Part shown: positions 813 to 59,245 of the stretch, in pieces
How positions within the stretch are numbered: the first letter of the stretch is position 1
Layout of the letters: each line of letters begins with the position of its first letter
Virus record (IMG/VR): IMGVR_UViG_3300022225_001767
Origin: a virus
Length of the DNA stretch: 64,000 nt
Strand: one strand, 5' to 3'
The notes under the pieces: model-generated
Seen by the model: the letters and a program-made list of their open reading frames with translations, nothing else
Told to the model about the DNA's origin: nothing
Databases searched by the model: none
Position numbers and translations under genes: made by a program

Positions 813-855
813 TTGCCTTGAGTTGTTCATGATGTTAATATAACTTCGTCAACAC
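813..855 (+). promoter_or_regulatory. sigma70 promoter with GTCAACAC leader motif
   Basis: TTGCCT-17-TAATAT-6-GTCAACAC(848-855), then AGAGG RBS and ATG 868. Confidence 0.75.
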
Positions 856-867
856 AGAGGAATTTAT

Positions 868-1347
868 ATGTCATCTTTTATCTATAATGCATTTACATCT
901 AAAGCACTTATTGATATTGCCAATCGCGAGCTTAAAGCAATAGGCGCACGTACTCGTGTAAGCCGTGTGGTTAAATCTCATAGCGACGTGCTACCTGGCC
1001 TTATTCAAGTTAAAACGAACCGTGGTGCGGACGCGTTGTTACACGTATGGAACTATGGAAATCGCCTTGAAACATTGTGTGTACGAGGCATACATCGTAT
1101 CACAGACAAGTACGGCAAGTTCGGTTTGTTACCTAACGGACAGCCTACCAGAGGACTTCGCACTTACATCTTCAACGGCGAAATGGGCGACGCTTACGTT
1201 GCCAGCGAGGAAGACATCGCTCAGTTTGTCACGCTTACCTTTGACGGCGTTGATACTGACGTTGTAAATAAGCGCATTGCTGATTCCATTGATTTTGCAA
1301 ACCGCGCGCTAAATGGCCCTCTTGAAGCCATTCGCATTGCTGCATAA
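868..1347 (+). CDS. Hypothetical protein
   Basis: 159-aa ORF with good RBS; first gene of an apparent operon with the methyltransferase. Confidence 0.75.
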   Translation: MSSFIYNAFTSKALIDIANRELKAIGARTRVSRVVKSHSDVLPGLIQVKTNRGADALLHVWNYGNRLETLCVRGIHRITDKYGKFGLLPNGQPTRGLRTYIFNGEMGDAYVASEEDIAQFVTLTFDGVDTDVVNKRIADSIDFANRALNGPLEAIRIAA

Positions 1348-1358
1348 GGGGATATTTT

Positions 1359-2753
1359 ATGCTTAACCGCTTCATTACGCGCATTCAGAACTACGCCGTC
1401 AAGCATCTTAAAAATGGTGCAGCTCGCGTATACATCAAAAACACCGAAGCGCTGCAAGCAGCAGGGTTTTTGAAAAACACCAACATCCGCATTACATACC
1501 TTAAAAATGGCATCGACATTCATGTTGATCAGAACGGTAGCAATAAGGTGATGGACACCGGGCGCGGTGAACTGGTTGAGCTTAAAAATAAAGACACAGG
1601 CAAAGCACTGGCTAACACAGCAAAAGTGTCGGTTACTTTCCGAAAGGGCGTTTTACGTATACGTGTGCATGGCCTCGACGCCGCACAGCAATCGCGTGTA
1701 TCTCGCGTCATTAACACCCTGAAACAAGGCAAACCGCTGCGTACCGCGTGCTTTTTCTCAGGTTTAGGCATGCTTAGCTACCATGTAAAAGAAGGGCTTA
1801 AACGTGCAGGTGTGGCTACTGAAATTACGTTTGCCAATGATGTTGATGAACTGGCCATGAGTTGCAACCTTGAAGGCAACCCTATGTGGTTAAACGCCAG
1901 TGAAGATGCATTGGCTGTCACCGACTCATTGGATGCACTTCATTTATATGATCTTCCACAGGTTGACGTGGCGACTATTGGCTATCCTTGTGTTGGTCAA
2001 TCCATCTTAGCGGATAAAGAAAAGCGTGATCTAATGCACCCCTTAGTAGGCACGCTATTCATGCCACTTTTCACTGCACTGCGAAAAATGAATCCCGCGA
2101 TAATCGTCATTGAAAACACGCCACGTTTTGCGGCATCGCAAACCCTTGACTTGTTAATGCGCGCACTTCCTGATTATCAATTTGAGCAACGTGTTATGGA
2201 CGGTCACGATTACAATGAGATTGAATCGCGCAAACGCGTAGCGATTGTTGCCACTACAAAGGGCTTGCCTGCATTGAAACTAGACAATGTTCCGTCGTTA
2301 TTTAATGACGCTCCTGTGCGCACGCTTCGCGATATTCAGGACGACATCCCTTTGGATGCACCTTGTTGGCGTGAAATGCAGCACGTCAAAGCCCGTGACA
2401 ATATGGCACATTTAGGTTATCGAAATGCGCTGTATTTTGGTGATGAAACCACAATGACTACGTTGCCAGCCTCTTATGGGCCACCTAAAGCAGGCGTACC
2501 TATGTTTGCTCACCCTGTCAACGACAAGCTTCAGCGACAGGTCATGCCAAATGAGCATGCAGTACTACGAGAACTACCAGATAGCTTAAAGAAATGCATT
2601 GATGATGTGTGGAATGGCATTCACGCATTGGTTAGTAAGCGAGGCTCATTCAGTGCTGCACACCGTTTATGTGGCAATGGCGTATCTAAACGTATATGGC
2701 AAAGCGTAGGCGCATCATTAGGCCAACAAATGAAAGCTTGGCGTTACGCATAA
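1359..2753 (+). CDS. C5 cytosine DNA methyltransferase with N-terminal extension (IncC Dcm-like)
   Basis: Motifs FFSGLG (I), GYPC (IV), ENT (VI), RKRV (VIII), GNGV (X); about 120-aa N-terminal extra domain. Confidence 0.85.
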   Translation: MLNRFITRIQNYAVKHLKNGAARVYIKNTEALQAAGFLKNTNIRITYLKNGIDIHVDQNGSNKVMDTGRGELVELKNKDTGKALANTAKVSVTFRKGVLRIRVHGLDAAQQSRVSRVINTLKQGKPLRTACFFSGLGMLSYHVKEGLKRAGVATEITFANDVDELAMSCNLEGNPMWLNASEDALAVTDSLDALHLYDLPQVDVATIGYPCVGQSILADKEKRDLMHPLVGTLFMPLFTALRKMNPAIIVIENTPRFAASQTLDLLMRALPDYQFEQRVMDGHDYNEIESRKRVAIVATTKGLPALKLDNVPSLFNDAPVRTLRDIQDDIPLDAPCWREMQHVKARDNMAHLGYRNALYFGDETTMTTLPASYGPPKAGVPMFAHPVNDKLQRQVMPNEHAVLRELPDSLKKCIDDVWNGIHALVSKRGSFSAAHRLCGNGVSKRIWQSVGASLGQQMKAWRYA

Positions 2754-2773
2754 TTATTAACGAGGATAAGTAC

Positions 2774-2995
2774 ATGCAAACAATTATATGCAAACACGAT
2801 GATCGAGGTGGATTCGAAGTGCTTGGCACCGATGGGCAACCTGTTAGGATCATTCTTGTCGAAGATGATCACATGGATGCTGCCAACATTACGGTCAATG
2901 GCGACAGACACCTAATTGCCAACGAATTTGTTGCAGAAAGCAAACCTGACATGGTGGCGAACGCTATGCTCACCTACACGCCATTCGAAGGCTAA
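2774..2995 (+). CDS. Hypothetical protein
   Basis: GAGGA RBS before ATG 2774. Confidence 0.55.
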   Translation: MQTIICKHDDRGGFEVLGTDGQPVRIILVEDDHMDAANITVNGDRHLIANEFVAESKPDMVANAMLTYTPFEG

Positions 2996-3160
2996 AAAAT
3001 GGCATCAACATGAAAGTCGACTTTTTTGCATAGCAATTACGAAACACCACCAAAGATGAAGATGTGTGTCGTTGCCCCAAGTCAATCTTGGTGATAGAAT
3101 GTTGTAAGCGAACTGTCATAATACGTGGCAGCAATACTTATGGTGAAAACAGTCACTTTT

Positions 3161-5779: not shown

Positions 5780-5823
5780 TTGAACCACCACTCTCCTTGT
5801 GTTATCATTAAAAGTGTCAACAC
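5780..5823 (+). promoter_or_regulatory. sigma70 promoter with GTCAACAC leader motif
   Basis: TTGAAC-17-TATCAT-7-GTCAACAC(5816-5823), AAGGAG, ATG 5835. Confidence 0.7.
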
Positions 5824-5834: not shown

Positions 5835-6371
5835 ATGTCCCTCAAAATATCTACACCTTTCACAGTTATCTCTGGCGGTCAGACTGGCGCTGATGTCGCG
5901 GGGCTTGCTGCTGCACATAAACTAGGTATCCCTACCACAGGTTGGGCCCCAAAAGGCTTTAAAACCGAAAAAGGCCCCAAGAAAATATTGCAGTCGCGTT
6001 ATGGCTTAATTGAAGATGAGAGTAGAGACTACGGCCCTCGAACCGTAAAAAATGCACACGCAGCAGACATTACATTTATCTTTTCCCCTCAGCAAAAGTC
6101 CAGCGGAACGGTAAAAACAATAAACGCCTGCATTGAGTCAGGGTGCGCTTACGTGGTTTACACTGAATGTAATGATGCAACGACGCGGTCTATCTTAAAT
6201 TACTTGATGCTTATGAAACCTATGGTTGTGAATATTGCAGGTAATCGTGAGTCAAAATGTCGTGGGTTGTCAAAGCAGGTTGTTGGGTGTTTAACACCTG
6301 CACTAAAAAGCTACCTAAACGACGTTACGCGGAACGGAATAATCCCCGTTTACCGCCACGCTAAAAAATAA
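5835..6371 (+). CDS. SLOG-superfamily protein (putative molybdenum-carrier-like family)
   Basis: ISGGQTGADVAGL...GWAPKG...RTVKN...NIAGNRES. Confidence 0.8.
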   Translation: MSLKISTPFTVISGGQTGADVAGLAAAHKLGIPTTGWAPKGFKTEKGPKKILQSRYGLIEDESRDYGPRTVKNAHAADITFIFSPQQKSSGTVKTINACIESGCAYVVYTECNDATTRSILNYLMLMKPMVVNIAGNRESKCRGLSKQVVGCLTPALKSYLNDVTRNGIIPVYRHAKK

Positions 6372-9059: not shown

Positions 9060-10838
9060 TTACTTCTTTCTACGCCATACGCAGGCGCCCGCTAGCAACA
9101 CAGCCATCCACCCCATGCTACCACCGCCAGAGCTTCCACCGGCATTGCCGGCATTGCCGCCATTGTTGCCGCCGCCATTATTACCACCATCATTTCCACC
9201 ACCGCTATTATCCGTGGTGTCATTGATGTTGATGACCACTTCATCCACATCTACATTAATATTGTCATTAACAATACGTAGCGTAAAGCTTTCATCATCT
9301 TCCGTAGCGTCTGTCATTGTCGCAATCGCAATGCGCTTTGACGTTTCGCCAGGCTCGAAATTCACTGTGGTGTCTATTGCAGTGTAATCCTCTCCCGCTA
9401 CTGCGGTTCCATTAAATGACTTCACATTCACGGCCACAGCACCATCGCTACCGTTTTCACGAATGATGTCTACAAACGACGAGCTGCCCTCATTAACGGT
9501 TTTGCTCGCTTGCGAGAAAGAGAAAGTACCAGCATTACCTACATCATCCGACCCGATCGTGTAAGTTACAGACTTCACATCATTGTTAATCTCTACCCCG
9601 TTCGGGTTCATAACACGCAACACAAGCGTCTCACTCACTTCAAACTCGTCGTCATTAACAAGCTCAATGGAAAAAGTCGTTCGGCCTGTGCCATCATAAG
9701 TTAAAGGGATAATACCATCACCAACAATATCGTCTTTACTGATGGTGCTTGCATCATAGTCCACCACCAATTCAAAAGAACCGTGTGGCACGCCGTCTTG
9801 ACTTGCGTTAGCGGCATCGAATCGAGACCACAGTACGCTACCAGTCAATGCACCTGTACTTTCGTCCACAAATGCGCTGCCGACATCGATAGTGGCCAAG
9901 CCGTTAATATCGTTCATATCAACAATATTTCTCAACGCCCAACTAAAATCGGTTGGCGTCTCCGCGCGTTTTTCTTCAATTTTTGCAACGCCTTCTCGAT
10001 AGGCTGCGGCAGCATCTGCAACTTGCAACTCACCACAGGCTTCTCCAGTGTCTATGTCAGAGTGTGCAGGATCTGAAAAGAAGTGCTCGTCGGTATAGCT
10101 AAAACCGCGACTATCCATAATGGAATAGTTTGTGTCGCAGCGATCGCCTACAGCATAGGTCGCCAACATATAAGGCGTTGTTGTATCAGACTCTCGATTG
10201 TGTCGAAGACCATCATTGTGACCTAACTCGTGAGCCATGATGGTCACAGAGTGTTGTGTATTTTCATAAGGCGTCACTACCGCAGAATCACCACCTAGCG
10301 TGGCCTTCCCGACAAACGCATTAACATCATCAGTGTCGCGTTTAGCAATCATTACATAATAAGATGCGCCATATTGACCAAACGCGTTACTCATTGCCGC
10401 ACTGCCAGGCTCACCAGATGCGATTTCTGTAAAATAGCGAACAACAGATGACTCTGTCGTGTATAGCTCCGCGTCAACAAAATCATCTGAAATTGGCAGT
10501 ACGCCGACTGATGTTCGCGATAGGCCGATGCCTCCGCGTGCCAGTGTTTCATTATTGACGGCGATACTTTCGTCAATGAAGTTGTATAGCGCAATAGGAT
10601 CGCCATCAAAATAATCACGAAGCACGGCCTCAGAATAGAAAAACAGTATACCCGTCTCCGTTACCGTTGAGGGTGCTGGGTAATCGTAAAATGCCACTTG
10701 AGTAGGTTGTTTATTCTGTGATTCACCTACAAGCACTTTAGGTTCAAAGTATGAACTTGTAGCATGGACAGAACCTGCCGCAGTCGCAAACAAGCCCGCG
10801 ATAATCGCTGATGTTATTTTCTTTTGGTGTTGACGCAT
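9060..10838 (-). CDS. Secreted metzincin (reprolysin/M12B-like) protease with Calx-beta domain(s) and GlyGly-CTERM anchor
   Basis: Signal peptide; HELGHNDGLRH zinc motif plus Met-turn (YSIM); NGTAVAGEDY...TVNFEPGETSK Calx-beta; C-terminal GGGSMGWMAVLLAGACVWRRKK. Confidence 0.85.
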   Translation of the reverse strand: MRQHQKKITSAIIAGLFATAAGSVHATSSYFEPKVLVGESQNKQPTQVAFYDYPAPSTVTETGILFFYSEAVLRDYFDGDPIALYNFIDESIAVNNETLARGGIGLSRTSVGVLPISDDFVDAELYTTESSVVRYFTEIASGEPGSAAMSNAFGQYGASYYVMIAKRDTDDVNAFVGKATLGGDSAVVTPYENTQHSVTIMAHELGHNDGLRHNRESDTTTPYMLATYAVGDRCDTNYSIMDSRGFSYTDEHFFSDPAHSDIDTGEACGELQVADAAAAYREGVAKIEEKRAETPTDFSWALRNIVDMNDINGLATIDVGSAFVDESTGALTGSVLWSRFDAANASQDGVPHGSFELVVDYDASTISKDDIVGDGIIPLTYDGTGRTTFSIELVNDDEFEVSETLVLRVMNPNGVEINNDVKSVTYTIGSDDVGNAGTFSFSQASKTVNEGSSSFVDIIRENGSDGAVAVNVKSFNGTAVAGEDYTAIDTTVNFEPGETSKRIAIATMTDATEDDESFTLRIVNDNINVDVDEVVININDTTDNSGGGNDGGNNGGGNNGGNAGNAGGSSGGGSMGWMAVLLAGACVWRRKK

Positions 10839-14078: not shown

Positions 14079-14106
14079 AAAAAGCCTTGCATTAGCAAGG
14101 CTTTTT
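14079..14106. terminator. Bidirectional intrinsic terminator
   Basis: AAAAAGCCTTGC-ATTA-GCAAGGCTTTTT. Confidence 0.85.
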
Positions 14107-14355
14107 GCTTTCTTTACTTAGTATCGCGCTAGCCTTCAGCACATCATTGTGTAATTTCTCAAAACGCTTTACCGCTCTGAATATAGAGTCTCTATTCACA
14201 CGCGTTGTCGCGTAGCTGGCCATGGAACCTCCATTAATGAGATAATTTTCAAGGCATGTCGCCACATCTTTGCTTTTACACCCAACGTGGGGAAGAACGC
14301 ACCTGATATAAGCAGGGTCAAACATTCCCTTTAGCACCTTTTTTCCATTTACCAT
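14092..14355 (-). CDS. Small HTH protein, PapB/FocB-like
   Basis: KSKDVATCLENYLINGGS...VNRDSIFRAVKRF resembles the PapB pattern; overlaps the dndC-like stop. Confidence 0.5.
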   Translation of the reverse strand: MVNGKKVLKGMFDPAYIRCVLPHVGCKSKDVATCLENYLINGGSMASYATTRVNRDSIFRAVKRFEKLHNDVLKASAILSKESKKPC

Positions 14356-17300
14356 TGCACACCCCCTTGTGCCACACTGACATCATTTAGTTTAAACGTG
14401 TTGCGGATCACACATGCTGCATTATCTTTTTTCTCCCATAATGCAGCACGAGCATCCAACGCCTCAAGCATCGCTTCTCTTGTGCCATCATTTTGATGCT
14501 TAGCCCAGCACATAAGCGTATTTAAGAACGCACCTTCGTTAAGCGCATCTTTCACATACGACACGGCACTTCGTTGCATGTCGGCCATTTTTTCGTGCAT
14601 CATTAGCGCGTGGTTGTTTACCGTTAGACGCGCCAGAGGGTTCTCCTCAAAATACTTCACCGCATCACGGTCGAGTAGCTTATACCAACCTTCAGGAGAA
14701 GAAAAATAGTCCATAAAGTGTGTCATTGCACCGTGGTATAGTAGCCAGTCACGAGGCACATTGATGTGGTCAAAATGCTTAAGCTCACCTTTCACGGCAT
14801 CCAGCATCACGAAGTAATTAGTGATTTCCTTAAAGCCTTCAATGTGATTGTTGTACAAACGCGTCAACTGCTGGCATACACCGTCAGAAAGATCTGACCA
14901 ATACTGATTGTAACGCTCTTTAAGCGCACGTCGCATTTCGTTGCGTGGTGCTCTTACGTTATCAAGTAAATATCTCGCTTTGTAGCTTCGATACGCTTTC
15001 ATATCCATCACGTCATCAATAGCAAGACCGATAGTGGCTTTTATTTCAGGTCGATATGTGCTCAGTTTAATCGGAATTCCAGCAGCACCGTCAAGCGCCA
15101 TTTGACGTAGCATGTCATCATCCAACATATACAGCCCCATCGACGCAAAATATTCCGTGCGCTTGATGATCCTTGCAGCATGACGCTTACTGTCTTGTGT
15201 TAGGTCAAAAATACCAAATCGCATCATCTGTTCAAAGGCGCGGGTACCGCTGTACTGATAAATACTTTCGCCTCGGCTTTCGCGGCGTTCCACAGTCTCG
15301 TCGTGTAACTGTAGCGCGCGCTCTATCCCATCCACCTCCATCCAATCTGCGGTACGAATATGGTCAAGCTGGTATCCACCCGTTACCGTTGACTCGAAGT
15401 AGTCCATTGTCCAATGTTGATAATTCAACTCAGGAACATATACAGGCACTGACTGCGTCACAGCCTCTTTATAAAGTGGAACCGGAGAACGCTCTTTAAA
15501 AGAGTATGTATTAAGGCTGGTGCGACCACGCTCGGTGATACGCATAACTCCACCTTTACGGCTCACTTTCTTCTTGGCACGGCGTGATGCCTGTATTTTC
15601 CTTTCCACATTTCGAGGTGATGACAAAAAGCGCTCAACCCCTTCAATGGCTGAAATAAAGTTAATATCCAGCGTTTCAGATGGGCGAAGGTGCGCATACT
15701 TTTCTCTGTCTTTAGGACTAAGAAAGTAATTGGCGTCACGCATTGGCATACGTGAGCTCATTGGCACTGGCTGCCACTCACAGTTTTCTGCTTTTTCATT
15801 GCCTAGGGTTAAAGGCATTGTGGCTGTTGGTCGCTGTGACACCGCGCCCGCCGTTGGCACCACCATAATGGCATCAGGGATATCATCAACCGTCGCACCT
15901 ACCGGGTCAACATCAGGGTAAGGGATGCGTTCACCGTTATATGTTTTGTCCCACACCGCCATCGCACGGTAGTGAGGCAGACGAACACCATCACGTGAGT
16001 GTATAAGGCTTAAAAACAACGAAATATCGGCTGACATCGGTTTTATCAAGTGACGCTGCGCATATTGCTTGTATACCGCTGCAAACTCTTCGCGATCTTC
16101 TTCACTGAGCAAAGGATCATTAATAATGTCGGCATAACCTTCATCGTCCATTTCTCGCCCATCAGCCACTAGCTGCTTAAAGCGTTCTGCACGGATGCGG
16201 TCGTCGTGTGTCGCCTGGCAAAGCAACCAGATGATTTTATCAATCGTTTTGGCGTTTAATACATTTGGCTGTAATGCCACTGCACCTGTTGTTTCATCAA
16301 CCGCTCTTGCATGCCATGTACGATTATTAATATCTTGGGCAACGTGCATGATGTAGTTTCTAACTTTAAGAATGTTGCCGCTGATAGCACGGTGACGTTT
16401 TTGCATCGCTTGCGCTTCACCAGACTTATCGGTAATACTTTTTGCACACAGGTAGCAACCAGTTCGCGCACTACCGCCACAACCACCCGCTTTTTGAGAG
16501 TCGCCTTTTAGGCGTTTTGATGATGTTGGGCAAGTGCCATCTTTTGAGTCGCTGTAAATCATATGAAGCAAACGATGGTTCTTCGCAAATGATGGAATGG
16601 GGGCGTTGCCCGAGTAGCTGTCAACCAGTGGCTTAGTGCCGGCTCGACGTAGAATAATCCACACTTCATCTGTGGTCATGCTAACAATAGGCGCAAATAC
16701 ACGTTCGTTATTTTGGTCGCACTCCACCAAGTCATCTGCTGTTAGGGTATCTTGCCCACGTTTTTTCAAAGAGGCGGCACGTTTAGCAGACTCTTCTGAG
16801 CGAGAACCAAGCAGGGTAACAACACGGTTACCATAATCTTTTGCCACTTGACGCTCAATGATCTCAGCATTGTCCACTTTCATGATTTGACTACAGTCAT
16901 TGTTAACGCGTGCCGTAGAGATTATTTTAAGACCACTAAGGAAAAGAGACGCCCACTGCTTAGCAAGAGGAGGTAGACCCACTCGCATATCGATGTTAAG
17001 CCCTTGCTTTTTACCAAAAGCGACAAGGCGATCTCGTTCATAAAGCGACAAAATTTGAACCAAGTGATTCTCTACGCCGGTATCAATGTTCGTGAACACT
17101 AAAGGGTGGTCCGCAGGCACTTTCCCTTCTTCAATGAGTTCTCTTAGCGCCTGAATAGCTGCCAGCATAACAACGGTACTGTCTTTACCAAAACTCGTCG
17201 CACACACGCACACATAGGATGTCATGATGACCTTAATGCTGTCTACGGCCTCTCTGAATAGCGCATAAGCTCTATTTTCAGCCGCAGCCGCCTCGACGCG

Positions 17301-17369
17301 ACCTGATGTTGCAGAACCTAAATCTATTCCCGCGATAAGATCTTGTGGTCGAATTGTGTTTACTGACAT
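14349..17369 (-). CDS. DndC-like PAPS-reductase-family Fe-S protein with long C-terminal extension
   Basis: PP-loop SFGKDS, CSQIMK, LLGSRSEESAKR, APIVSMTTDEVW, CP...CGGSARTGCYLC...DKS; total length 1006 aa. Confidence 0.82.
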   Translation of the reverse strand: MSVNTIRPQDLIAGIDLGSATSGRVEAAAAENRAYALFREAVDSIKVIMTSYVCVCATSFGKDSTVVMLAAIQALRELIEEGKVPADHPLVFTNIDTGVENHLVQILSLYERDRLVAFGKKQGLNIDMRVGLPPLAKQWASLFLSGLKIISTARVNNDCSQIMKVDNAEIIERQVAKDYGNRVVTLLGSRSEESAKRAASLKKRGQDTLTADDLVECDQNNERVFAPIVSMTTDEVWIILRRAGTKPLVDSYSGNAPIPSFAKNHRLLHMIYSDSKDGTCPTSSKRLKGDSQKAGGCGGSARTGCYLCAKSITDKSGEAQAMQKRHRAISGNILKVRNYIMHVAQDINNRTWHARAVDETTGAVALQPNVLNAKTIDKIIWLLCQATHDDRIRAERFKQLVADGREMDDEGYADIINDPLLSEEDREEFAAVYKQYAQRHLIKPMSADISLFLSLIHSRDGVRLPHYRAMAVWDKTYNGERIPYPDVDPVGATVDDIPDAIMVVPTAGAVSQRPTATMPLTLGNEKAENCEWQPVPMSSRMPMRDANYFLSPKDREKYAHLRPSETLDINFISAIEGVERFLSSPRNVERKIQASRRAKKKVSRKGGVMRITERGRTSLNTYSFKERSPVPLYKEAVTQSVPVYVPELNYQHWTMDYFESTVTGGYQLDHIRTADWMEVDGIERALQLHDETVERRESRGESIYQYSGTRAFEQMMRFGIFDLTQDSKRHAARIIKRTEYFASMGLYMLDDDMLRQMALDGAAGIPIKLSTYRPEIKATIGLAIDDVMDMKAYRSYKARYLLDNVRAPRNEMRRALKERYNQYWSDLSDGVCQQLTRLYNNHIEGFKEITNYFVMLDAVKGELKHFDHINVPRDWLLYHGAMTHFMDYFSSPEGWYKLLDRDAVKYFEENPLARLTVNNHALMMHEKMADMQRSAVSYVKDALNEGAFLNTLMCWAKHQNDGTREAMLEALDARAALWEKKDNAACVIRNTFKLNDVSVAQGGVQW

Positions 17370-17382
17370 GGGTATTCCTAGC

Positions 17383-17431
17383 GTGTTGACGTATTAAGCA
17401 TATCATAACAAACGTTGACCCTAGAGTCAAC
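17383..17431 (-). promoter_or_regulatory. sigma70 promoter with GTCAACAC motif and GTTGAC-N6-GTCAAC palindrome
   Basis: TTGACT-17-TATGAT-11-GTCAACAC(17390-17383); palindrome 17414-17431 over the -35. Confidence 0.75.
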
Positions 17432-17492
17432 GCCTGTATTCCATTCTATTGATGTTATCGACATCACGCCAAAGTGAACGACGGGTTTAGAG

Positions 17493-17792
17493 CTAGGCTG
17501 AACAGAGTGCGTTTTCTTTCGCAAAAGCAATAGCCTCTTTCGAATGGTAGATGATCAGCGAATGAACACCTGCCTGCAAAGGCCCGTCGCTTCCCACCTC
17601 CCACTCACGCGCGCTGGCACTTGCGGTTAGTCTGGTTACAGCCTCTTTTCGTTCACTATCAGGGAACAGCACAACCGTATAATCATGCTCACTTTTCCCA
17701 ATAATACTCATAACGGGCATGGTCAATCCGGGGCACCGTAATTCCATGGCATTGACCACGCCTCGGGACAAGTCGGATAATGCAATCGCCAT
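17493..17792 (-). CDS. Hypothetical protein
   Basis: 99 aa, starts 3 nt after the dndB-like stop. Confidence 0.6.
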   Translation of the reverse strand: MAIALSDLSRGVVNAMELRCPGLTMPVMSIIGKSEHDYTVVLFPDSERKEAVTRLTASASAREWEVGSDGPLQAGVHSLIIYHSKEAIAFAKENALCSA

Positions 17793-17795
17793 AGC

Positions 17796-19850: not shown

Positions 19851-19863
19851 GTGGCCTACACGA

Positions 19864-42417: not shown

Positions 42418-42460
42418 TTGACACCCCAAGCTATTTTTGAGATAATAAGATGGTCAACAC
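42418..42460 (+). promoter_or_regulatory. sigma70 promoter with GTCAACAC leader motif
   Basis: TTGACA-17-GATAAT-6-GTCAACAC(42453-42460), AGAGG, ATG 42474. Confidence 0.8.
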
Positions 42461-42473: not shown

Positions 42474-43217
42474 ATGTCACGCTCTGAACGAAACAGAAAA
42501 AAACAAAACACGCAATCCACCATCAACACATTTATTCTTGCAGTGCAGGAAATTGAAACACGCTTTTACGTCTATTCCGATGTTACACTTTCTGCCCCTG
42601 TTCAAAAGCACAATCATTATAGCGTGACATTTTCACACGATGCGGATGCGTGCACCATTACCGTCACTGCAACAATTAACAATAACGCACCTGCAATCAA
42701 AATTCATGTCAGTGACGCCCCCGTAGATAAGATTGAAACCATCACGGGCCTACTGGTCGACTTAGCAAAAAAATATGGTGGTACGTGCGAAGCCGAAGAA
42801 GAGCAAAACGCGATAACACTCACCGCACCAGCGCTTTTTCCTGAATTATACATTACAGTCTGCCTTTGCTTAACCGGAAAACTCAACTTTGAGCCGCCAG
42901 CGATTGACGGCCCGGTCGTTAAATTGTCTACTCTTAATCGCCCCTCTTGGTTTAAAGACCCACGCTTCGTCGCGTGGTTAGATGACAGTCGTGGCATTAT
43001 GACGTTCCACAACAAGGGCGAAACGCTAGGCGAATGGTCAGACATCGTAGTATGGGTGGATTCAGACTTGACAGGCGAAGGTGACGCTAGCGATATGCCC
43101 GAGCCATTCTGGCGCGAGGTTGTTCGCACTGCGGCCGCTGCTAATAGCGGTGTGACTTCATCGGAAACCGGGCATTTTCCTGTTCGTATCACCAACATTG
43201 ACAGTGGAGCACAGTAA
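42474..43217 (+). CDS. Hypothetical protein
   Basis: First gene of a three-gene operon. Confidence 0.7.
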   Translation: MSRSERNRKKQNTQSTINTFILAVQEIETRFYVYSDVTLSAPVQKHNHYSVTFSHDADACTITVTATINNNAPAIKIHVSDAPVDKIETITGLLVDLAKKYGGTCEAEEEQNAITLTAPALFPELYITVCLCLTGKLNFEPPAIDGPVVKLSTLNRPSWFKDPRFVAWLDDSRGIMTFHNKGETLGEWSDIVVWVDSDLTGEGDASDMPEPFWREVVRTAAAANSGVTSSETGHFPVRITNIDSGAQ

Positions 43218-43753
43218 TGACGCAAACCAACTCACTTACGCATGGTGTTTTTGTCGCTTACTATCATAAGTCTATTATCCTTGTTGCAGAAGGTAAGCTT
43301 CACACCGCGCTCACCACTCCGTCTAATGAAAAGCTAACAGAAATGCTTGTTAATGCGACTAAAATCGCAGCTGAGAAAAACACGTTTGTTGATACAGTTA
43401 TTTTGCCTCACGTTGCTCAAAGCGATGAACCTGAGGACATACTCGCTCTCTTCCTCATGTTAATGCCACAAGGCGATAAGAGCTTTTGGTATATTATGAG
43501 CAAGCACCCTGATGATGTTTGGATTAATGATGAACCCGTATCGTCACACATGACAGTGACATCGAAATACCACGTTGATACGATGCCAGAGGCGCCTTTA
43601 TGGGACTTTGTTGTCGATGACCGTGTAACTGAAATAACGGTAAATGACTTTAATAAGGCAACCTTCGATAGCGAGTTCAACACGTGGGTATGCAACAGCT
43701 CTCGCGGCACGCTTCATATTGAAATGGAAGAGCCTCGCTTTGAAGACTGGTAA
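43217..43753 (+). CDS. Hypothetical protein
   Basis: TAATG stop/start overlap. Confidence 0.7.
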   Translation: MTQTNSLTHGVFVAYYHKSIILVAEGKLHTALTTPSNEKLTEMLVNATKIAAEKNTFVDTVILPHVAQSDEPEDILALFLMLMPQGDKSFWYIMSKHPDDVWINDEPVSSHMTVTSKYHVDTMPEAPLWDFVVDDRVTEITVNDFNKATFDSEFNTWVCNSSRGTLHIEMEEPRFEDW

Positions 43754-43779: not shown

Positions 43780-45054
43780 ATGATGAGCCGAACAGAGCCG
43801 CTTGATTACATGGGTGTACTATCCCTTAAGCATATCTCACCACCTTCTCCGATGGCATGCTTTGGCTCGCCTGAGCCTGCGCATCACTTGGTGGAACTTA
43901 CTTTCCATGAAGCCACATGGAAAGCCGAAACACGCCAGTCTATTGCGGGAAAACCAATAGCGCGGGTGGTGATGAGTAGCGCTCAGTTTGGTCACTTCAT
44001 CATGTTCCCGAGTGAACATGAGGGTTCGCCTGTTACATTAACGCACCGGGAAGGATTCTCATTAAGGGATTACGACCCTCAAGACGATGCAATCAAACAG
44101 ACGCTCAAAGATACCATCAATGCCGCCATTGGCGATTCTCCACAAGCCATAGAGTTTTTTGAACGCATCAACATCACACTTATCCAAGCGTTGGAAAATG
44201 GTCGCCTGAAAAAGCAAGAACAAGATGATGTCGCTCAAACGCTATCGCTAATAGCGTCTTATTTAAAGAGCAGTGAAGATTACTATATGCAGCAGGCTGA
44301 AGCTGCAATGAAACTACGCGCACAACGACTCTTTGCTGATTTATGTGGGATGATTAACGGCAGTCATGCATCAGTTCCATCACTGCCACTAGACAACAGC
44401 GCAGGCGAGACGTGCGACCCAGGTGCGCTTCTTTATGGCTGTGTTACCCATGGAGAAACACGACTTTTTGGCGACACGATGAGTAATGGTCGCTACTTCA
44501 ACTTGACGCTCTCTACAGCAACGGCCTCCTTGCTTACTGATCGCACCCGTTATCGCTATACCGCAGACAGAGAATTTTTGTCTGTCGGCGTAAGCCTTGA
44601 CTCGTATGCGCTTCTTATACAAGGTAGAATTAAACATATACCGGCGACTATCATGCGTCGAGAGAAAAAAGTTATCGAACGTGTTGATGTATCGCACACT
44701 CAAGAGCCAAGAGCGCGCGTTTCCGACGCAACAGGTAGCAGTAAACGCGATGAACTCATAGTGGCCTTAACTCAGTTTAGCGAGAGCATTCAACATCGTG
44801 GTGGCGGCAAAAAAGCAATAGCAGCATTAAAGGCGGACGTCGACGATATCTTCCAGCTATTTAAGCAGTACGGTGAGTTTGCCAACCCTATAAAACACAG
44901 GACTCTTGAAAAGGCCCTTCGAGATATCGAAGTGGAGACGGCGGCACAGCTTGATGATGAGATTGACGCGCTACCTGAGCAGGTTCGAGAACAGAAGGCG
45001 AACCAGGTGAAAGCGATTCTTTTAAGCGTCAAGCAAATTACAGACTCGCGGTAA
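43780..45054 (+). CDS. Hypothetical protein with internal two-fold duplication
   Basis: Two similar LT..A...R....MS/VS...P.T..R.E segments, each followed by a helical region. Confidence 0.7.
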   Translation: MMSRTEPLDYMGVLSLKHISPPSPMACFGSPEPAHHLVELTFHEATWKAETRQSIAGKPIARVVMSSAQFGHFIMFPSEHEGSPVTLTHREGFSLRDYDPQDDAIKQTLKDTINAAIGDSPQAIEFFERINITLIQALENGRLKKQEQDDVAQTLSLIASYLKSSEDYYMQQAEAAMKLRAQRLFADLCGMINGSHASVPSLPLDNSAGETCDPGALLYGCVTHGETRLFGDTMSNGRYFNLTLSTATASLLTDRTRYRYTADREFLSVGVSLDSYALLIQGRIKHIPATIMRREKKVIERVDVSHTQEPRARVSDATGSSKRDELIVALTQFSESIQHRGGGKKAIAALKADVDDIFQLFKQYGEFANPIKHRTLEKALRDIEVETAAQLDDEIDALPEQVREQKANQVKAILLSVKQITDSR

Positions 45055-46620: not shown

Positions 46621-47082
46621 TCAACTTATTTTCTTTCTTGCTAAAGCATAAAGTAAAGCGTGTTCTGATTTCTCGCAAGGGCGATGTGCGAATTCTCTCC
46701 ACTCATTGTCTTGTGCTGCATGAAAGTTTGGCCACCAATTTCCTAATGGCCCATGACGCATGGTGATACTTCTCCCTTTATACTCAAGTAACCCCCACCC
46801 CTTAGGCAGGTCTTCCTCTTGCAACAACCCTTCAGGCGCCAAATAAAAACGGTAGGTACCAACGCCCCCCTCTGCCCTTTCTGGTTTGCGCTGGTCTGCC
46901 ATAAAGTCAGCGCGACTCACTTTGACCTCAACAAGCACTGCGCACTGCTGTCTGAAGCCAATTGCATCAACACGCTCTCGACACCCTGCACCGGAGACAT
47001 TTTTGTCGGAGACCGGGAACCCATTTCGCTTTAGCCAGGCTACGGCCTTCGCGCATAACTTCTCGTGTAATTCGCTTGGCAT
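46621..47082 (-). CDS. PD-(D/E)xK (MmcB-like) nuclease-fold protein
   Basis: VDAIGF...LVEVKVSRADFMAD..K...G..RFYLAPEGLL..EDLPKGWGLL. Confidence 0.7.
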   Translation of the reverse strand: MPSELHEKLCAKAVAWLKRNGFPVSDKNVSGAGCRERVDAIGFRQQCAVLVEVKVSRADFMADQRKPERAEGGVGTYRFYLAPEGLLQEEDLPKGWGLLEYKGRSITMRHGPLGNWWPNFHAAQDNEWREFAHRPCEKSEHALLYALARKKIS

Positions 47083-47100
47083 AACACTTCCCAATAAACG

Positions 47101-47460
47101 TTAAATGAATTCAAATACATCAGTGAAAGGAACAACGTGACGTATTCTCCGCCAAGGCTTTAATGTCCTTGTCGCGTTATCTATAGGTTTACAATGAAGG
47201 CTCAGGTCCGTTCGTATTACGTTTCGCTTCAGATTGAAGGTGGGTGTTGAACTTTTGGCTTTCACTTCAATAAAGAGGCGGTCACTGAAAGCCTTAATAG
47301 AGCACCGCAAATCTTTATTGCTCTGACTGACAATGTGAACTCGTTTGAATTTTAGGTTCGTGGTGTCCAACTTAGCCCAGTATGCCATTGATACATTGGG
47401 TGAAGCTGCGCAGAGCATGAATGCGACAAGCCGAAGGGTAATGCTAATGCTAATGCTCAT
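47101..47460 (-). CDS. Secreted hypothetical protein
   Basis: Signal-like N-terminus; ATGA overlap. Confidence 0.5.
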   Translation of the reverse strand: MSISISITLRLVAFMLCAASPNVSMAYWAKLDTTNLKFKRVHIVSQSNKDLRCSIKAFSDRLFIEVKAKSSTPTFNLKRNVIRTDLSLHCKPIDNATRTLKPWRRIRHVVPFTDVFEFI

Positions 47461-47786
47461 GCATTACCTTCCGCTGTTGATTTTCCGCCTTTCTCACCCA
47501 ACATGCTATTCACATTGTTGAGAAATCCAGTTAAATCTTTCGTCAATATGTCGCTACCAATGGTAGGCGATAGCGCTTTTCTAATGTTCACGTATTGCGT
47601 CAGCATACCTTTCAGTTCATAAAGACACTCACGGTTCACCGGCTCGTTGTCAATCGCTTTCACTTTCACCATGACCGCGTGGTAATATTTCGCCAAAGAT
47701 TTACCTTCGACAAATAGCTTTTGGCGAAGCATTTGATTCGATTTAGTCACTTCCTGACGGGCTGTTTTTCTTAGATAAGGGTCCAT
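47457..47786 (-). CDS. Hypothetical protein
   Basis: First gene after a motif promoter. Confidence 0.6.
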   Translation of the reverse strand: MDPYLRKTARQEVTKSNQMLRQKLFVEGKSLAKYYHAVMVKVKAIDNEPVNRECLYELKGMLTQYVNIRKALSPTIGSDILTKDLTGFLNNVNSMLGEKGGKSTAEGNA

Positions 47787-47806: not shown

Positions 47807-47851
47807 GTGTTGACGTGTATTAATAATAGCAAAAATACGCACGAGAATCAA
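47807..47851 (-). promoter_or_regulatory. sigma70 promoter with GTCAACAC leader motif
   Basis: TTGATT-17-TATTAT-8-GTCAACAC(47814-47807). Confidence 0.7.
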
Positions 47852-51229: not shown

Positions 51230-51272
51230 TTGACAACCCTCACAAAAAGCGAGATAATAACATTGTCAACAC
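51230..51272 (+). promoter_or_regulatory. sigma70 promoter with GTCAACAC leader motif
   Basis: TTGACA-17-GATAAT-6-GTCAACAC(51265-51272). Confidence 0.8.
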
Positions 51273-51288: not shown

Positions 51289-51540
51289 ATGCCAAACACA
51301 ACACCAAACCAACCTGAAAACGATGGTCAAAACGCATTTATTACTGCAATGGGGCGTGACGTAGAATCAGAAACTGATGTAGGTGAGATAGAAAACCAAA
51401 TGATCAGCGCGGTTCAATCTATTGACCAGCCAACGATTGTTGCTGCTCTGCGAAAGGCTGGGCTCAATCGCGACGCAGAGCTTATCGAGCTTTTGCACTC
51501 ACTGTCGAACGCTCACGACTATGCCGTTTCCAACACGTAA
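51289..51540 (+). CDS. Hypothetical protein
   Basis: 83 aa, RBS. Confidence 0.6.
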   Translation: MPNTTPNQPENDGQNAFITAMGRDVESETDVGEIENQMISAVQSIDQPTIVAALRKAGLNRDAELIELLHSLSNAHDYAVSNT

Positions 51541-51545
51541 CATCT

Positions 51546-51591
51546 TTGACTCCCTGATCACAAATTACTATCATCTCTACAACGTCAACAC
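51546..51591 (+). promoter_or_regulatory. sigma70 promoter with GTCAACAC leader motif
   Basis: TTGACT-17-TATCAT-9-GTCAACAC(51584-51591), AAGGAG. Confidence 0.8.
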
Positions 51592-51605: not shown

Positions 51606-51803
51606 ATGGACAAGAGCAAACACGTAAACATCACCGCCATTGAGCGACGCACCGGTCTAAAATTAGCCTCAACCACCGTATTTCATCCTGATTTTATTGA
51701 ACAAAAGAAAACCTTCTTGATCGAGGAAGTTGCGAATAATTTCCAACTACGCGCGGATCAGATCACACTTAGCACAGATGAAACTATGGATCTTGCTGCA
51801 TAA
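51606..51803 (+). CDS. Hypothetical protein
   Basis: 65 aa, strong RBS. Confidence 0.6.
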   Translation: MDKSKHVNITAIERRTGLKLASTTVFHPDFIEQKKTFLIEEVANNFQLRADQITLSTDETMDLAA

Positions 51804-51892: not shown

Positions 51893-52384
51893 TTACGTTC
51901 GGCGTACGGAGTCGTGCAGCGTGATAAATCCCATCACTTTACAGCCTTCCTTTGCGAGCACCTTAATGTCGAACGTACGTTCAACGCCTGACTCTTCCTC
52001 TCGCACGTCAACGACCCTCTCGTCATCATCATAACTGGACACGCGAAAAGCGTCTCCGTCAACAATGAGAACCGCAGCATCAGGCATAATGTCACCTAAG
52101 TGTTTTTCATTCAACCGTTGTTCTGCAAGCAGCGCCATATCATCAAAACTGACATCGTCGCCAGCGACGCCGATCGCATGCATTATCTCTTCACTGCTTA
52201 ACTCCATCACCACCGGTGACTTTCCACTTGATGATGCAAGTCTATTGACGACCTCATCAAATGCCTCTCTGTCCATCATAGCACCATCATCAGGGTCCGT
52301 GGTCGCAACAATGACGCCATTAATCATCACAACGCTAGCATTGTCATAGTGAACGACGATGGGAGTGTATGTGTTATTTTGCAT
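51893..52384 (-). CDS. Hypothetical acidic protein
   Basis: Leader has variant motif GTCAACAT (52409-52402) then AGAGG. Confidence 0.7.
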   Translation of the reverse strand: MQNNTYTPIVVHYDNASVVMINGVIVATTDPDDGAMMDREAFDEVVNRLASSSGKSPVVMELSSEEIMHAIGVAGDDVSFDDMALLAEQRLNEKHLGDIMPDAAVLIVDGDAFRVSSYDDDERVVDVREEESGVERTFDIKVLAKEGCKVMGFITLHDSVRRT

Positions 52385-52471
52385 TTTCTGTTTCCTCTTT
52401 TATGTTGACGGAAACAATAATACTAAATCACATCATGACAGACTACAGACTATAAGTAGCATTTTACTTTT

Positions 52472-56746: not shown

Positions 56747-57238
56747 ATGAAATATGTTATCTGCTCTACTCTCGCAACAATGCTTGCAATCACGCCTATG
56801 CTAACCCATGCAAAGAAACCTCCCGCTGTGCTGCCTATCATCGACACGCTTGGAGGTATAACGTTGGGTAAAGTCAACCCTGATGCGCGAGGATGGGTGA
56901 TGACCCCTGAAAATAACGGCGGCGTCCGTTACCAACAGGTTCCTCAGCGTTTCACTAGTGATGAAGAATATCACATTGTGCTTGCAGAATACCTCACTGA
57001 CGATAGCGATATTGCTGTTGAGTCTAGTATTACTGTGACGTTTTCGTCTACAACATATTGTCAATCTGAATTCTCAGCACTATACCGCCGCTACGCTAAA
57101 GTGCACAACGAGTCGCTCGCCCCAAAAAACTCAGAGACGACTTGGATTACATCTACCGACCATGTGTTGACATGGCGAGAGCATTGCGGCGATGAGACCC
57201 CCACGTTCTCTATGACGCTATCAAAAAACCCGCAATAA
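56747..57238 (+). CDS. Secreted hypothetical protein
   Basis: AAGGA RBS, signal peptide. Confidence 0.7.
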   Translation: MKYVICSTLATMLAITPMLTHAKKPPAVLPIIDTLGGITLGKVNPDARGWVMTPENNGGVRYQQVPQRFTSDEEYHIVLAEYLTDDSDIAVESSITVTFSSTTYCQSEFSALYRRYAKVHNESLAPKNSETTWITSTDHVLTWREHCGDETPTFSMTLSKNPQ

Positions 57239-57247
57239 GCGGGTTTT
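57223..57247. terminator. Bidirectional terminator
   Basis: AAAACCCGC-AATAA-GCGGGTTTT. Confidence 0.8.
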
Positions 57248-57269
57248 GTTTATCACGTAAAGCGCGTTC

Positions 57270-58439
57270 TTAATTTGCGTTGAACAAATCTCGACTATAG
57301 ACCTTATCTAACACATCACTGATTTCGTCCGTTACTCGGTTGGCAACAATCACATCAGATTGCGCCTTAAACACGGCCAGGTCATTTACCACGCGCGAAT
57401 TATAGAAGCTTTCTTCCTCCAACACAGGCTCATAGACAATCACTTCAATGCCTTTAGCCTTTATGCGCTTCATTATCCCCTGGATGGCGCTTGCTCGGAA
57501 ATTGTCCGACCCTGATTTCATGATAAGTCTATACACACCAACTACTCTGGGGGCACGACTTACAATTGAATCTGCAACAAAATCCTTACGGGTCCGATTT
57601 GCCTCCACAATGGCCTGAATCATGTTGTTAGGCACATCGCTGTAATTGGCCAACAGCTGTTTGGTATCTTTAGGCAGGCAATACCCGCCGTAACCGAAAC
57701 TCGGGTTGTTATAATGCTTGCCAATACGCGGGTCAAGCCCCACACCTTCGATGATCTGCTTTGTGTCTAATTGATTGCGTTCTGCGTAGCTGTCTAATTC
57801 ATTGAAGTAGGCTACCCGCATTGCCAAGTAGGTGTTAGCAAAAAGCTTAATAGCCTCTGCCTCTGTATTGTCAGTAAAGAGCACGTCGACATTTTGTTTT
57901 ACAGCACCTTGCTGTAGCAACCCCGCGAACACGGCAGCTCTCTCACTGCGCTCACCGACGATGATCCTACTTGGATGAAGATTGTCATACAGCGCACTCC
58001 CTTCACGTAAAAACTCAGGAGAGAAAATGAGGTTTTGGGTATTAAATCGCTCCCTTGCGTGCCTGGTAAAGCCAACGGGGACCGTTGACTTGATGATCAT
58101 TGTCGCATCAGGGTTAACAGCCATCACATCGTTGATAACGGCATCGACGCTGCTTGTATCAAAGTAATTGGTTGTCGGGTCATAATCCGTTGGCGTCGCA
58201 ATGATAACAAAATCGGCATCTTTGTAAGCGGATTTTGCATCGAGCGTGGCCTCAAAATGCAACGACTCTCTTTTTAGAAACGCACTAATCTCTTTATCTT
58301 CGATAGGCGACGTCTTTTGATTAAGCAATTCAACTTTACTGGCAACAATATCTACTGCTGTTACTACATTGTGCTGCGCGAGCAACATGGCGTTAGACAA
58401 CCCCACATAACCCGTACCTGCAACAGCGATATTAAACAT
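57270..58439 (-). CDS. ugd: UDP-glucose 6-dehydrogenase
   Basis: [57 protein letters not shown]. Confidence 0.95.
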
Positions 58440-58507
58440 ACCATCTTTACCACTCGGTAGGGTTTCAGATACCCTACCACAGCTTACATTTCCTTTTGTA
58501 TTCGTAC

Positions 58508-59005
58508 TCACTCTTCACCCTTTTGTTGATTATCCGCAGACTGCGATTTTTGTTCACACGCGGCATTATATGCCTCATTAATCACGTTTGCTCGCCATTT
58601 CTCGGCTTTTTCTGTTAACGATTGGATATCTTTTGCGTATATCCATGTCGATGTATATCTTCCCCAGGAGTAACCATAGCTGTGTCTATCGAGCTCGTCA
58701 GAGTTTAGCTTGGTCATAAAATCATTTGGCAGCGGCGTTTCCACTTGCGCCAACACACCACACACATTCATTTCGTTGGCAATAAGATAAATCAACTCAC
58801 TAGTGTCATCGTAGTCTTCGACACCTTTCACCCCCATTTGATCTAATGCAGGCTTTATTTCGTCAATGTCATACAACGCGTCTTTTAAAGACTGCGGCGC
58901 CGTTTCTTCGGAGGTCACTAAATCCATAATTATAACGTTACTGAACCGCAATTCACTTTCAAATAACGTTTCTCTGTTAACATTGAAACCTGTTTGTGTT
59001 GACAT
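58508..59005 (-). CDS. Hypothetical acidic protein
   Basis: Promoter TTGATT-17-TAGATT-6-GTCAAAAC; an exact GTCAACAC overlaps its start codon. Confidence 0.7.
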
Positions 59006-59201
59006 TATTCACCTATTTAAGTTTGTTGTTTTGACGTGTCTAATCTACTACAAACATAACCTTTAATCAAATTTAAATTGATATTCACACCTCCTTCTGA
59101 TGTTGTTAAAAAAGAAAAAGCGGCACACAACGGCAGCGTAAAAGAACGTGCCGAATGTCGAACTTACCATACCCAAACTTATCTTGCTTAACTCATGAGT
59201 C

Positions 59202-59245
59202 TTGACAACCCTCTTAACTTTTGGGACAATACTTCATGTCAACAC
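59202..59245 (+). promoter_or_regulatory. sigma70 promoter with GTCAACAC leader motif
   Basis: TTGACA-17-GACAAT-7-GTCAACAC(59238-59245). Confidence 0.75.

Follow-up and report, generated by a model that had tools for sequence, protein, structure and literature searches.

An octamer repeated at the promoters of a large marine element, and candidate hairpin RNAs that may pair with it

The 64,000-nucleotide virus record IMGVR_UViG_3300022225_001767 (here the window, meaning this whole stretch at its full length) raises the question of why one octamer, GTCAACAC, stands just behind the -10 box of so many promoters, and what reads it there. A sequence-only reading of the window had listed 15 such copies and proposed a regulon tag, acting either as an RNA target site or as an operator at the transcription start. 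The tag is enriched, fixed in position and orientation, and deeply conserved across a family of related metagenome contigs; inverted copies of it are enclosed in structured, conserved hairpins beside terminators or in 3' untranslated regions. The reading put forward here has about an even chance of being right: GTCA(A/G)CAC would be a 5' tag of messenger RNAs (mRNAs) beside the ribosome site, bound by element-encoded RNAs that carry its complement (anti-tag RNAs). The window DNA was also found on marine metagenome contigs of 124-290 kb, among them TARA_SAMEA2622305 scaffold_56 (187 kb) and Ga0208895_1000001 (290 kb), and a 447-kb contig carries a homologue of 98% identity. By its sequence, this DNA appears to belong to a large mobile or extrachromosomal element of a marine gammaproteobacterium. 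The label was chosen because neither phage hallmarks (Pfam and PHROG scans) nor conjugation genes were seen in the approximately 150 kb read of the 187-290-kb (or larger) element.

Distribution and conservation of the octamer

The window contains 20 exact copies of GTCAACAC, compared with 2.66 ± 1.82 in dinucleotide shuffles; the maximum in the shuffles was 8, and none of 100 reached 20. It is the commonest 8-mer of the window that is not of low complexity. Seventeen copies fall within the part of the window, roughly 10%, that a crude map of open reading frames (ORFs) leaves as non-coding or 5' untranslated region (UTR), and the other three are internal to ORFs, two of these on first codons in sense orientation. 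All 15 copies of the sequence-only reading were recovered at their coordinates and strands, together with the copy it had placed over the start codon of ORF 58508-59005; its list lacked four exact copies on the minus strand (10827, 28239, 35464 and 57164). Each of the 15 copies is oriented toward its gene, and a -10-like hexamer of the sigma-70 type lies 6-12 nt upstream (median 7). A plausible -35 at 17 bp had been claimed for 14 of them. It is clear for 12, weak at 23693 (TTGTTT) and 26986 (TTTCAA), and absent at 19864, as had been said. The Shine-Dalgarno (SD) sequence begins 2-9 nt past the tag in these promoters, and the end of the tag is 10-20 nt from the ATG in 14 of the 15. The tag also lies on the start codon in four genes, and one such case is kept across relatives. 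Among the near variants named earlier, GTCAACAT at 52402, GTCAAAAC at 59028 and GTTAACCAC at about 45127 stand in promoter context, whereas the one at 35701 is a loose resemblance only. The C8-to-U change in the 52402 variant would still pair with G in RNA.

GTCAACAC is the sole tag allele in the window. A second allele, GTCAGCAC, was found in related DNA, for example in 15 of the 19 cassette promoters along 20 kb of a 290-kb contig. The JGI metagenomes were scanned with the pattern -35, N18, GATAAT, N6, tag. This returned contigs without overlap with the window that carry 4-7 tags in 5-8 kb each, and protein walking from these gave more DNA of the family. About 100 distinct tag contexts were collected across the family loci, about 80 of them with the start of an ORF (at least 40 codons) within 30 nt. 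A search of these loci that was blind to the tag, using the -35 and the extended -10 only (TTGAY, N14-16, TGnGAnAnT), found 45 distinct promoters, and GTCA(A/G)CAC begins 6 or 7 nt after the -10 in 43 of them. The same spacing holds for 53 of about 72 copies in promoter context, and a pyrimidine precedes the tag in 16 of the 19 promoters with 6-nt spacing (a Y-1/G+1 start context). Judged by this spacing, by the pyrimidine before the G and by what is typical of sigma-70 promoters, transcription probably begins at the G of the tag. The cassette has the consensus TTGACAAC..ACACAG.TTTTG(A/C)GATACT AACCCT GTCA(A/G)CAC AACA..(SD)..ATG, with the layout TTGACA, 17 bp, TGnGATAMT, 6 nt, tag, ACA-rich spacer, SD sequence and ATG. 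Terminator hairpins abut the -35 at 36903, 26986 and 47807, and do not do so at every promoter.

A syntenic relative from another sample (L064/L066) shares 77% protein identity in the DndB-like gene and 85% in the helicase. At five orthologous promoters in this relative, the tag is identical in 40 of 40 bases amid flanks (45 nt upstream and 25 nt downstream, anchored on the tag) that are 36-37% identical. The tag thus seems to be under selection of its own, and its identity amid diverged flanks argues against a passive passenger of a recombining cassette. The 11-12-nt spacing between the -10 and the tag at the DndB-like and DndC-like promoters is also kept in this relative. At the L066 helicase promoter the tag lies 15 nt after the -10, yet 9 nt before the ATG. 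The more distant relatives of 55% identity, L065 (DndB) and L067 (helicase), are without the tag. Plasmids of Alteromonas, Shewanella and Pseudoalteromonas that have the DndB/DndC-like module show no tag enrichment, with 2-10 copies per 108-336 kb. Since these relatives and module-sharing plasmids do not have it, the tag is specific to this lineage. Literature matches to the 8-mer were primers and -35 boxes only. The earlier proposal of a regulon tag is borne out by the invariance of the octamer at more than 40 independently found promoters, and by all eight of its bases at the five orthologous ones.

Inverted copies in hairpins

Copies outside promoters, two in the window and several in related contigs, are each enclosed by a perfect stem of 8-10 bp; enclosing stems of at least 8 bp occur at 1.7% of random window positions. 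The opposite strand of these hairpins shows the complement GUGUUGAC at the apex. The two copies of the window lie in candidate anti-tag RNAs (RNA 1 and RNA 2, Table 1). Folding z-scores are lower for the anti-tag strand than for the tag strand (-3.0 vs -2.2 and -3.6 vs -0.5). Moreover, three unrelated helices depend on G.U pairs that are mismatches on the tag strand, with -9.3, -10.7 and -12.5 versus -5.0, -5.4 and -8.1 kcal/mol. An alternative role of the inverted tag as the -35 of an antisense promoter was discarded, as no -10 was found at the right distance.

The apex of RNA 2 is about 95% identical in L066. Comparison of the individual folds of each sequence, in which the stems are shifted, showed compensatory changes in the outer and inner stems, namely a C-G to G-C flip and a coordinated gain and loss of pairs; the stem sequences of hairpin 1 are wholly different around the same loop. 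Identity to L068 is about 98% over the RNA 1 region and about 80% over the next 140 nt. Against L045, the identity profile of the RNA 1 region is that of a recombination mosaic and not of selective conservation. Contig starts in RNA libraries, at 35402 and 35419, lie close to where RNA 1 is predicted to begin, and a contig end at 28279 coincides with the base of the RNA 2 hairpin; these contigs do not show the strand, and the libraries may contain DNA. On its minus strand, the candidate RNA region 28170-28300 contains several GGA motifs, but this strand folds poorly.

The anti-tag of related contigs is found on the coding strand, behind a stop codon and ahead of an intrinsic terminator, and so in the 3' UTR. 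A module composed of GGTGATGTGCTGACACACTCACC and a terminator occurs three times in L051 and L060, after stop codons and on the coding strand; within it lies GUGCUGAC, complementary to the tag's G allele. In these two contigs the hairpin-plus-terminator module precedes cassettes. Two hairpins, a further anti-tag and one tag share a single 3' UTR in L041, with a terminator at 232-262. Downstream of the anti-tag, and on the same strand, there are terminators with U-runs at 35525-35546 in the window, at 232-262 in L041 and in the three GGTGATGTGCTGACACACTCACC modules. The L041 loops are perfect complements, 14-15 nt long, of the consensus leader GUCAACACAACAGRG. The sole variable position of the anti-tag (position 4, U/C) mirrors the variable position 5 (A/G) of the tag. 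The predicted apical loops are UUGA in RNA 1 and CUGA in the 3'-UTR modules, inside GUG-YUGA-C, and in these models they fit the YUNR motif. No Rfam family reached its gathering threshold over the window, with chance-level matches only at 35330-35600 and 28100-28400. Within L041 232-425, the tag and an anti-tag are 44 nt apart in one 3' UTR and are predicted to pair in a long stem, followed by a second anti-tag hairpin and a terminator. This modelled arrangement may be self-masked or sponge-like.

Competing readings of the octamer

If the tag acts in RNA, the cassette would put it at or a few bases from the 5' end, in leaders about 20-30 nt long, right before the ribosome-binding site and inside or at the edge of the ribosome footprint. 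Anti-tag RNAs with GUG(U/C)UGAC at a hairpin tip (a YUGA apical loop) would pair with it over 8-9 bp, and over up to 15 bp for consensus leaders. Such pairing would repress translation and/or trigger decay across the tagged gene set, repression being the more likely direction, and the outcome might be coordinate control, for example a transient burst after cell entry. The carriers would be the two stand-alone small RNAs of the window and others in the 3' UTRs of related contigs. For the G allele, pairing would be perfect with GUGCUGAC and would include a G.U wobble with GUGUUGAC, whereas the A allele would have a mismatch with GUGCUGAC; two graded channels are therefore possible. A wider form of this proposal is an addressing code, in which most accessory and establishment mRNAs start with the tag and are jointly governed by hairpin RNAs, some of them in intergenic terminator modules, and in which the matched alleles GUCAACAC/GUGUUGAC and GUCAGCAC/GUGCUGAC give graded or separate channels. 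Taken as a whole, it is tentative and somewhat doubtful.

The start-codon tags, the position of the L066 helicase tag near the ATG and the ACA-rich leader GUCAACACAACA link the tag to the initiation region rather than to the promoter; an action in RNA is the most economical reading. ACA motifs just upstream of the SD sequence were reported to enhance translation, and GcvB represses many mRNAs through them (PMC3879156). Several observations weigh against RNA pairing. The RNA-library evidence consists of assembled contigs only, without strand and possibly from DNA. On double-stranded DNA the anti-tag is simply the inverted tag, so the match of A/G with U/C cannot separate RNA pairing from a DNA site. 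Beyond the 8-9-mer, the complementarity of the window leaders is no better than that of shuffled leaders, and the predicted folds place part of the anti-tag in a short stem. The RNA 1 promoter is weak, with a -35/-10 spacing of 15 bp and a -10 whose last T is C in L068; L041 folds equally well on either strand. The two GTTGAC-N6-GTCAAC palindromes that cover -35 boxes may point to a dimeric DNA-binding protein. Among RNA chaperone genes, only the CsrA homologue was identified, and its known preference for GGA does not match the tag.

Of the two options that the sequence-only reading had left, the RNA site is thus favoured by the inverted copies at hairpin apices and by the start-codon tags, while the operator is unlikely. 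In the latter case, a DNA-binding protein of the element or the host would read double-stranded GTCARCAC at +1 to +8 and block RNA polymerase, as a plasmid-style global repression like that of KorA, KorB and KorC of IncP-1, with the inverted copies as extra sites. The fixed position of the tag just behind the -10 would suit such a protein, and so would the near-consensus sigma-70 promoters, which resemble those of globally repressed plasmid backbones. The tagged genes have typical establishment or anti-restriction functions (methylases, helicase, PcfJ). Moreover, the first six bases of the tag recur inverted, as (T)GTTGAC, in about half of the -35 boxes, and the two palindromes overlap -35 boxes. 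However, dimeric repressors do not usually bind a lone, asymmetric site such as this, and the palindrome of the DndC-like promoter is lost in L064, where the tag is kept. No helix-turn-helix (HTH), ribbon-helix-helix or other DNA-binding domain was found in about 50 window proteins scanned (mostly ORFans), the PapB match being below threshold. An operator also gives no reason for start-codon tags, nor for inverted copies at the apex of co-varying hairpins beside terminators. A tag read in RNA by a protein or by the ribosome itself is less probable still; it would be an ACA-rich 5' translational enhancer or a site for an RNA-binding protein of the element, for instance a translational repressor or nuclease of the T4 RegA/RegB kind, and the hairpin copies would be unrelated or decoys. 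The leader GUCAACACAACA has three ACA triplets directly upstream of the SD sequence, where ACA enhances translation in enterobacteria (PMC3879156); the tag is tied to the translation initiation region and a CsrA-family gene lies in the window. An enhancer, however, leaves the invariant GUC and the exact 8-mer at more than 70 sites unexplained, and decoys need tag-strand RNA, whereas it is the anti-tag strand that the G.U pairs and terminators speak for. With GGA as the motif bound by CsrA, a CsrA site was rejected for the variable tag-to-GGA spacing (2-9 nt). In the 16S, 23S and 5S RNAs of Escherichia coli, used as a proxy for the host, no exact complement of the tag was found, and the best duplexes were of 6-7 bp.

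The tag might also be functionless, spreading and homogenised with a recombining promoter-terminator cassette, with the inverted copies as decayed cassettes; we regard this as highly unlikely. Spread by recombination was proposed for the promoter-early stem-loop (PeSL) cassettes of T4-type phages (PMC4122927). Many promoters here do have 50-55 bp of similarity in common, including spacer bases unread by sigma-70. Several cassettes come straight after a terminator hairpin, contigs differ in their genes in a mosaic fashion with breaks close to cassettes, and the hairpin loops look like the stretch of a cassette from the -10 to the SD sequence. But the tag is equally invariant at the non-cassette promoters (848, 5816, 17383, 19033, 21901, 26986, 47807 and 51584) and in orthologous promoters with flanks of about 36% identity, and the hairpin apex is kept while the stems are replaced, which indicates selection and not decay. 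Least probable of all, and very improbable in itself, is a signal like ops, read on the non-template strand by a NusG/RfaH-type or Q-type factor that makes RNA polymerase resistant to termination. An oriented, near-invariant signal that heads many transcription units does resemble ops/JUMPstart, and the array genes are separated by terminators. However, no NusG/KOW protein was found among the proteins scanned, the interval +1 to +8 is still within the initial transcribing complex and precedes the known loading sites, and the start-codon copies and hairpin anti-tags are left unexplained.

Gene content and comparison with known systems

The coordinates of the features in the window are collected in Table 1. 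The L066 counterpart of the degenerate tag at 28328 is GTCTTCAC. The antisense copy at 57164 is probably a chance occurrence. The palindrome at 17414 is kept in the near-identical contig L003 and lost in the diverged L064, where the tag stays.

Table 1. Tags, inverted copies and associated features in the 64-kb window.
Feature	Position	Strand	Context
Tag GTCAACAC	848-855	+	6 nt after TAATAT; 12 nt before ATG of ORF 868-1347
Operon from tag 848	868-1347, 1359-2753	+	ORF, then C5 methylase (1359-2753)
CsrA homologue, 61 aa	5582-5767	+	Just upstream of tagged promoter 5816
Tag	5816-5823	+	7 nt after TATCAT; heads cpYpsA-family gene 5835-6371
Tag directly behind start codon (ATGcGTCAACAC)	10827-10834	-	Calx-beta protein 9060-10838; same arrangement in L064
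Tag	17383-17390	-	11 nt after TATGAT; heads 1006-aa PAPS-reductase/DndC-like gene 14349-17369; kept in L064
Palindrome GTTGAC-N6-GTCAAC	17414-17431		Over -35 of DndC-like promoter
Tag	19033-19040	-	12 nt after TAGATT; heads DndB-like gene 17796-19013; tag and spacing kept in L064
Tag	19864-19871	-	7 nt after TAATAT; heads ORF 19140-19850
Tag	21901-21908	+	C5 methylase (ATG 15 nt downstream, ORF end 23345); kept in L064
Tag	23693-23700	+	7 nt after GATAAT; heads C5 methylase 23711-24901; kept in L064
Tag	26986-26993	-	6 nt after TGgTATAGT; heads PIF1-type helicase 25613-26971
Candidate anti-tag RNA 2	28142-28290	+	TTGCTT-16-TATTAT; hairpin 1 at 28178-28197
RNA 2 bipartite long hairpin	28200-28279		GUGUUGAC at 28239-28246 in conserved 48-nt apex
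Degenerate tag GTCATCAC	28328-28335	+	7 nt after conserved promoter TTGAAA-17-CATAAT of ORF 28392-28796
Candidate anti-tag RNA 1	35384-35546	+	TTGACA at 35366, TGtGAGAAT 35384-35392 (or TAGATT at 35403)
RNA 1 hairpin A	35415-35434	+	
RNA 1 anti-tag GUGUUGAC	35464-35471		Within 8-bp stem 35444-35451 / 35492-35499
RNA 1 intrinsic terminator	35525-35546	+	U-run on anti-tag strand only
Tag	36903-36910	+	Full cassette TTGATT-17-GATAAT-6-tag directly after terminator hairpin; heads PcfJ-domain gene 36928-38769
Palindrome GTTGAC-N6-GTCAAC, second copy	38869-38886		Over -35 and spacer of 38926 operon
Tag	40960-40967	+	Full cassette TTGACT-17-GATAAT-6-tag; heads ORF 40982-41992
Tag	42453-42460	+	Full cassette TTGACA-17-GATAAT-6-tag; heads ORFs 42474-43217, 43217-43753, 43780-45054
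Tag	47807-47814	-	8 nt after TATTAT; heads ORFs 47457-47786, 47101-47460, 46621-47094
Tag	51265-51272	+	Cassette TTGACA-17-GATAAT-6-tag; heads 83-aa ORF 51289-51540
Tag	51584-51591	+	9 nt after TATCAT; heads 65-aa ORF 51606-51803
Variant tag GTCAACAT	52402-52409	-	7 nt after TATTAT; heads ORF 51893-52384
Exact copy, antisense inside ORF 56747-57238	57164-57171	-	No promoter or hairpin context
Tag over start codon (ATGTCAACAC)	58996-59003	-	ORF 58508-59005
Variant GTCAAAAC	59028-59035		6 nt after TAGATT, promoter of ORF 58508-59005
Tag	59238-59245	+	7 nt after GACAAT; ORF 59294-59650; sole long gap (48 nt) to ATG

The nearest database sequences of the element are short patches of Alteromonas plasmids. 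No match was found in the GTDB representative genomes, INPHARED or IMG/VR, and PLSDB gave only two short patches. Element DNA is present in metatranscriptome (RNA) libraries of 12 studies. The gene content is mostly ORFans; the recognisable genes include three C5 DNA methylases, one N6/N4 DNA methylase, a PIF1 helicase, two PcfJ-domain proteins, a DndB-like protein, a 1006-aa PAPS-reductase/DndC-like protein, an SLT/LysM protein, a CsrA homologue and a cpYpsA protein. The tagged set is composed of DNA methylases, DNA-modification genes, the helicase, PcfJ-like proteins and many small ORFans. The conserved module at 14092-19013 (-) contains the DndB-like gene, a 99-aa ORF, the DndC-like gene and a small ORF with a PapB match below threshold. 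It is also carried by plasmids of Alteromonas, Shewanella, Pseudoalteromonas and Vibrio, and no other dnd genes were seen nearby. The tagged 613-aa protein at 36928-38769 (+) has its PcfJ domain at the C-terminal. The 1981-aa repeat protein at 29235-35180 (-), with a repeat period of 447 bp and the recurring word GCGAGATTGC, stands far above all others in contig depth in several metatranscriptome libraries. Contig ends at 35217-35237 suggest that its transcript begins, with no tag, some 40-55 nt before the ATG.

The identity between contigs is sharply mosaic, as seen for window 34500-39000 against L045, and for L001, L002 and L003 against the window. Blocks of 100% identity stand beside blocks of 60-90%, entire genes are swapped, and the breakpoints often lie at cassettes or terminators, comparable to PeSL-mediated shuffling. 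An alternative flank in L003 (4944-5345) has an H-NS-like gene (weak Pfam hit) with the tag only 4 nt after TAATAT, and a divergent MerR/HTH_17-like gene. The 1.9-kb segment 19889-21780, with a 553-aa ORF at 19960-21621 (-), behaves like a mobile cassette, and contigs from RNA libraries join both of its ends to at least four different flanks. Its insertion took away the -35 of the tagged promoter at 19864, where the end of this indel cassette now replaces the -35 region; one metatranscriptome contig terminates at 19869. Depth over the 3' part (19668-20334) is 10-50 times that of the adjoining DNA, as would be expected of an omega-RNA. The 553-aa ORF was considered as a TnpB-like RNA-guided repressor of the tag. 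It has no Pfam, PHROG or convincing PDB match, the Atlas gives weak leads to TnpB clusters only, and no flank like a target-adjacent motif is common to the tags. It was concluded that this ORF has no specific link to the tag.

If the RNA reading is true, the element would control dozens of unrelated and often swapped genes with a portable cassette, and a gene inserted behind it would join the regulon automatically. This would explain the continued regulation of hyperplastic gene arrays. Plasmid and phage regulation would be widened past protein repressors and single-target antisense RNAs, and a compact orthogonal 8-nt handle with its cognate RNA might serve synthetic control of many genes. The addressing code, if true, would be a self-contained element-wide post-transcriptional regulon without a described counterpart in plasmids or phages. 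Under the operator reading, too, there would be a large new regulon with a cleanly testable binding site. As the element is common in ocean metagenomes and in the metatranscriptomes of 12 studies, the system would be ecologically widespread.

Some known systems are similar in part. The Kor networks (KorA, KorB and KorC of IncP-1; ArdK and KorA in IncN/IncW) use palindromic operators near the -35, the -10 or +1, bound by dimeric repressors. As in these networks, one short sequence lies at many strong promoters of a mobile element and would tie backbone or establishment genes into a regulon; whereas the site here is asymmetric (with a palindrome at two promoters only), no repressor was found, and the inverted copies lie in RNA-like hairpins. 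The ops/JUMPstart elements are leader signals of many operons, including those on plasmids, and are read on the non-template DNA by RfaH, a NusG paralogue. They are likewise short, oriented and near-invariant. However, ops lies farther downstream, whereas the tag is at +1 to +8 in most promoters and is tied to the ribosome-binding region, and no NusG paralogue was found among the proteins scanned. The plasmid antisense RNAs with YUNR U-turn loops (CopA/CopT, Sok/hok, FinP/traJ) are cis-encoded and have a single target, and DapZ is a small RNA derived from a 3' UTR. The complement of the tag also lies in a predicted apical UUGA/CUGA loop, beside terminators or in 3' UTRs; in this case, by contrast, the RNAs would have dozens of target mRNAs, reached in trans by way of the tag they share.

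The PeSLs of T4-type phages are repeated cassettes of a stem-loop, a near-consensus sigma-70 promoter, an SD sequence and a start codon (PMC2839356, PMC4122927). They stand before small ORFans in hyperplastic regions and are tied to indels and gene swaps. The present element has the early sigma-70-like promoter (TTGACA-17-TGnGATAMT) with an SD sequence and an ATG within about 30 nt, and at some promoters only a stem-loop or terminator immediately upstream. However, the description of PeSLs has neither an invariant +1 element nor complementarity between stem-loop and leader (PMC4122927), and the element has no phage hallmark in the part read and no match in INPHARED or IMG/VR. GcvB pairs a G/U-rich seed with a shared C/A-rich element beside the SD sequence of many mRNAs, much as GUG(U/C)UGAC would pair with GUCA(A/G)CAC here. 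The target sequence of GcvB is itself a translation enhancer (PMC3879156), and the consensus leader CAACACAACA is of the same ACA-rich type. In contrast to GcvB, the target here is an invariant 8-mer at the presumed transcription start of more than 70 promoters of one mobile element. The seed lies at a hairpin apex here and in a linear region in GcvB, several anti-tag copies and two alleles exist, and there is no sequence or structure match to GcvB (Rfam RF00022) or any other Rfam family. By analogy, the system thus seems to be kin to both multi-target antisense control and composite regulatory cassettes, and there is a real chance that it represents a new kind of element-wide mRNA addressing system.

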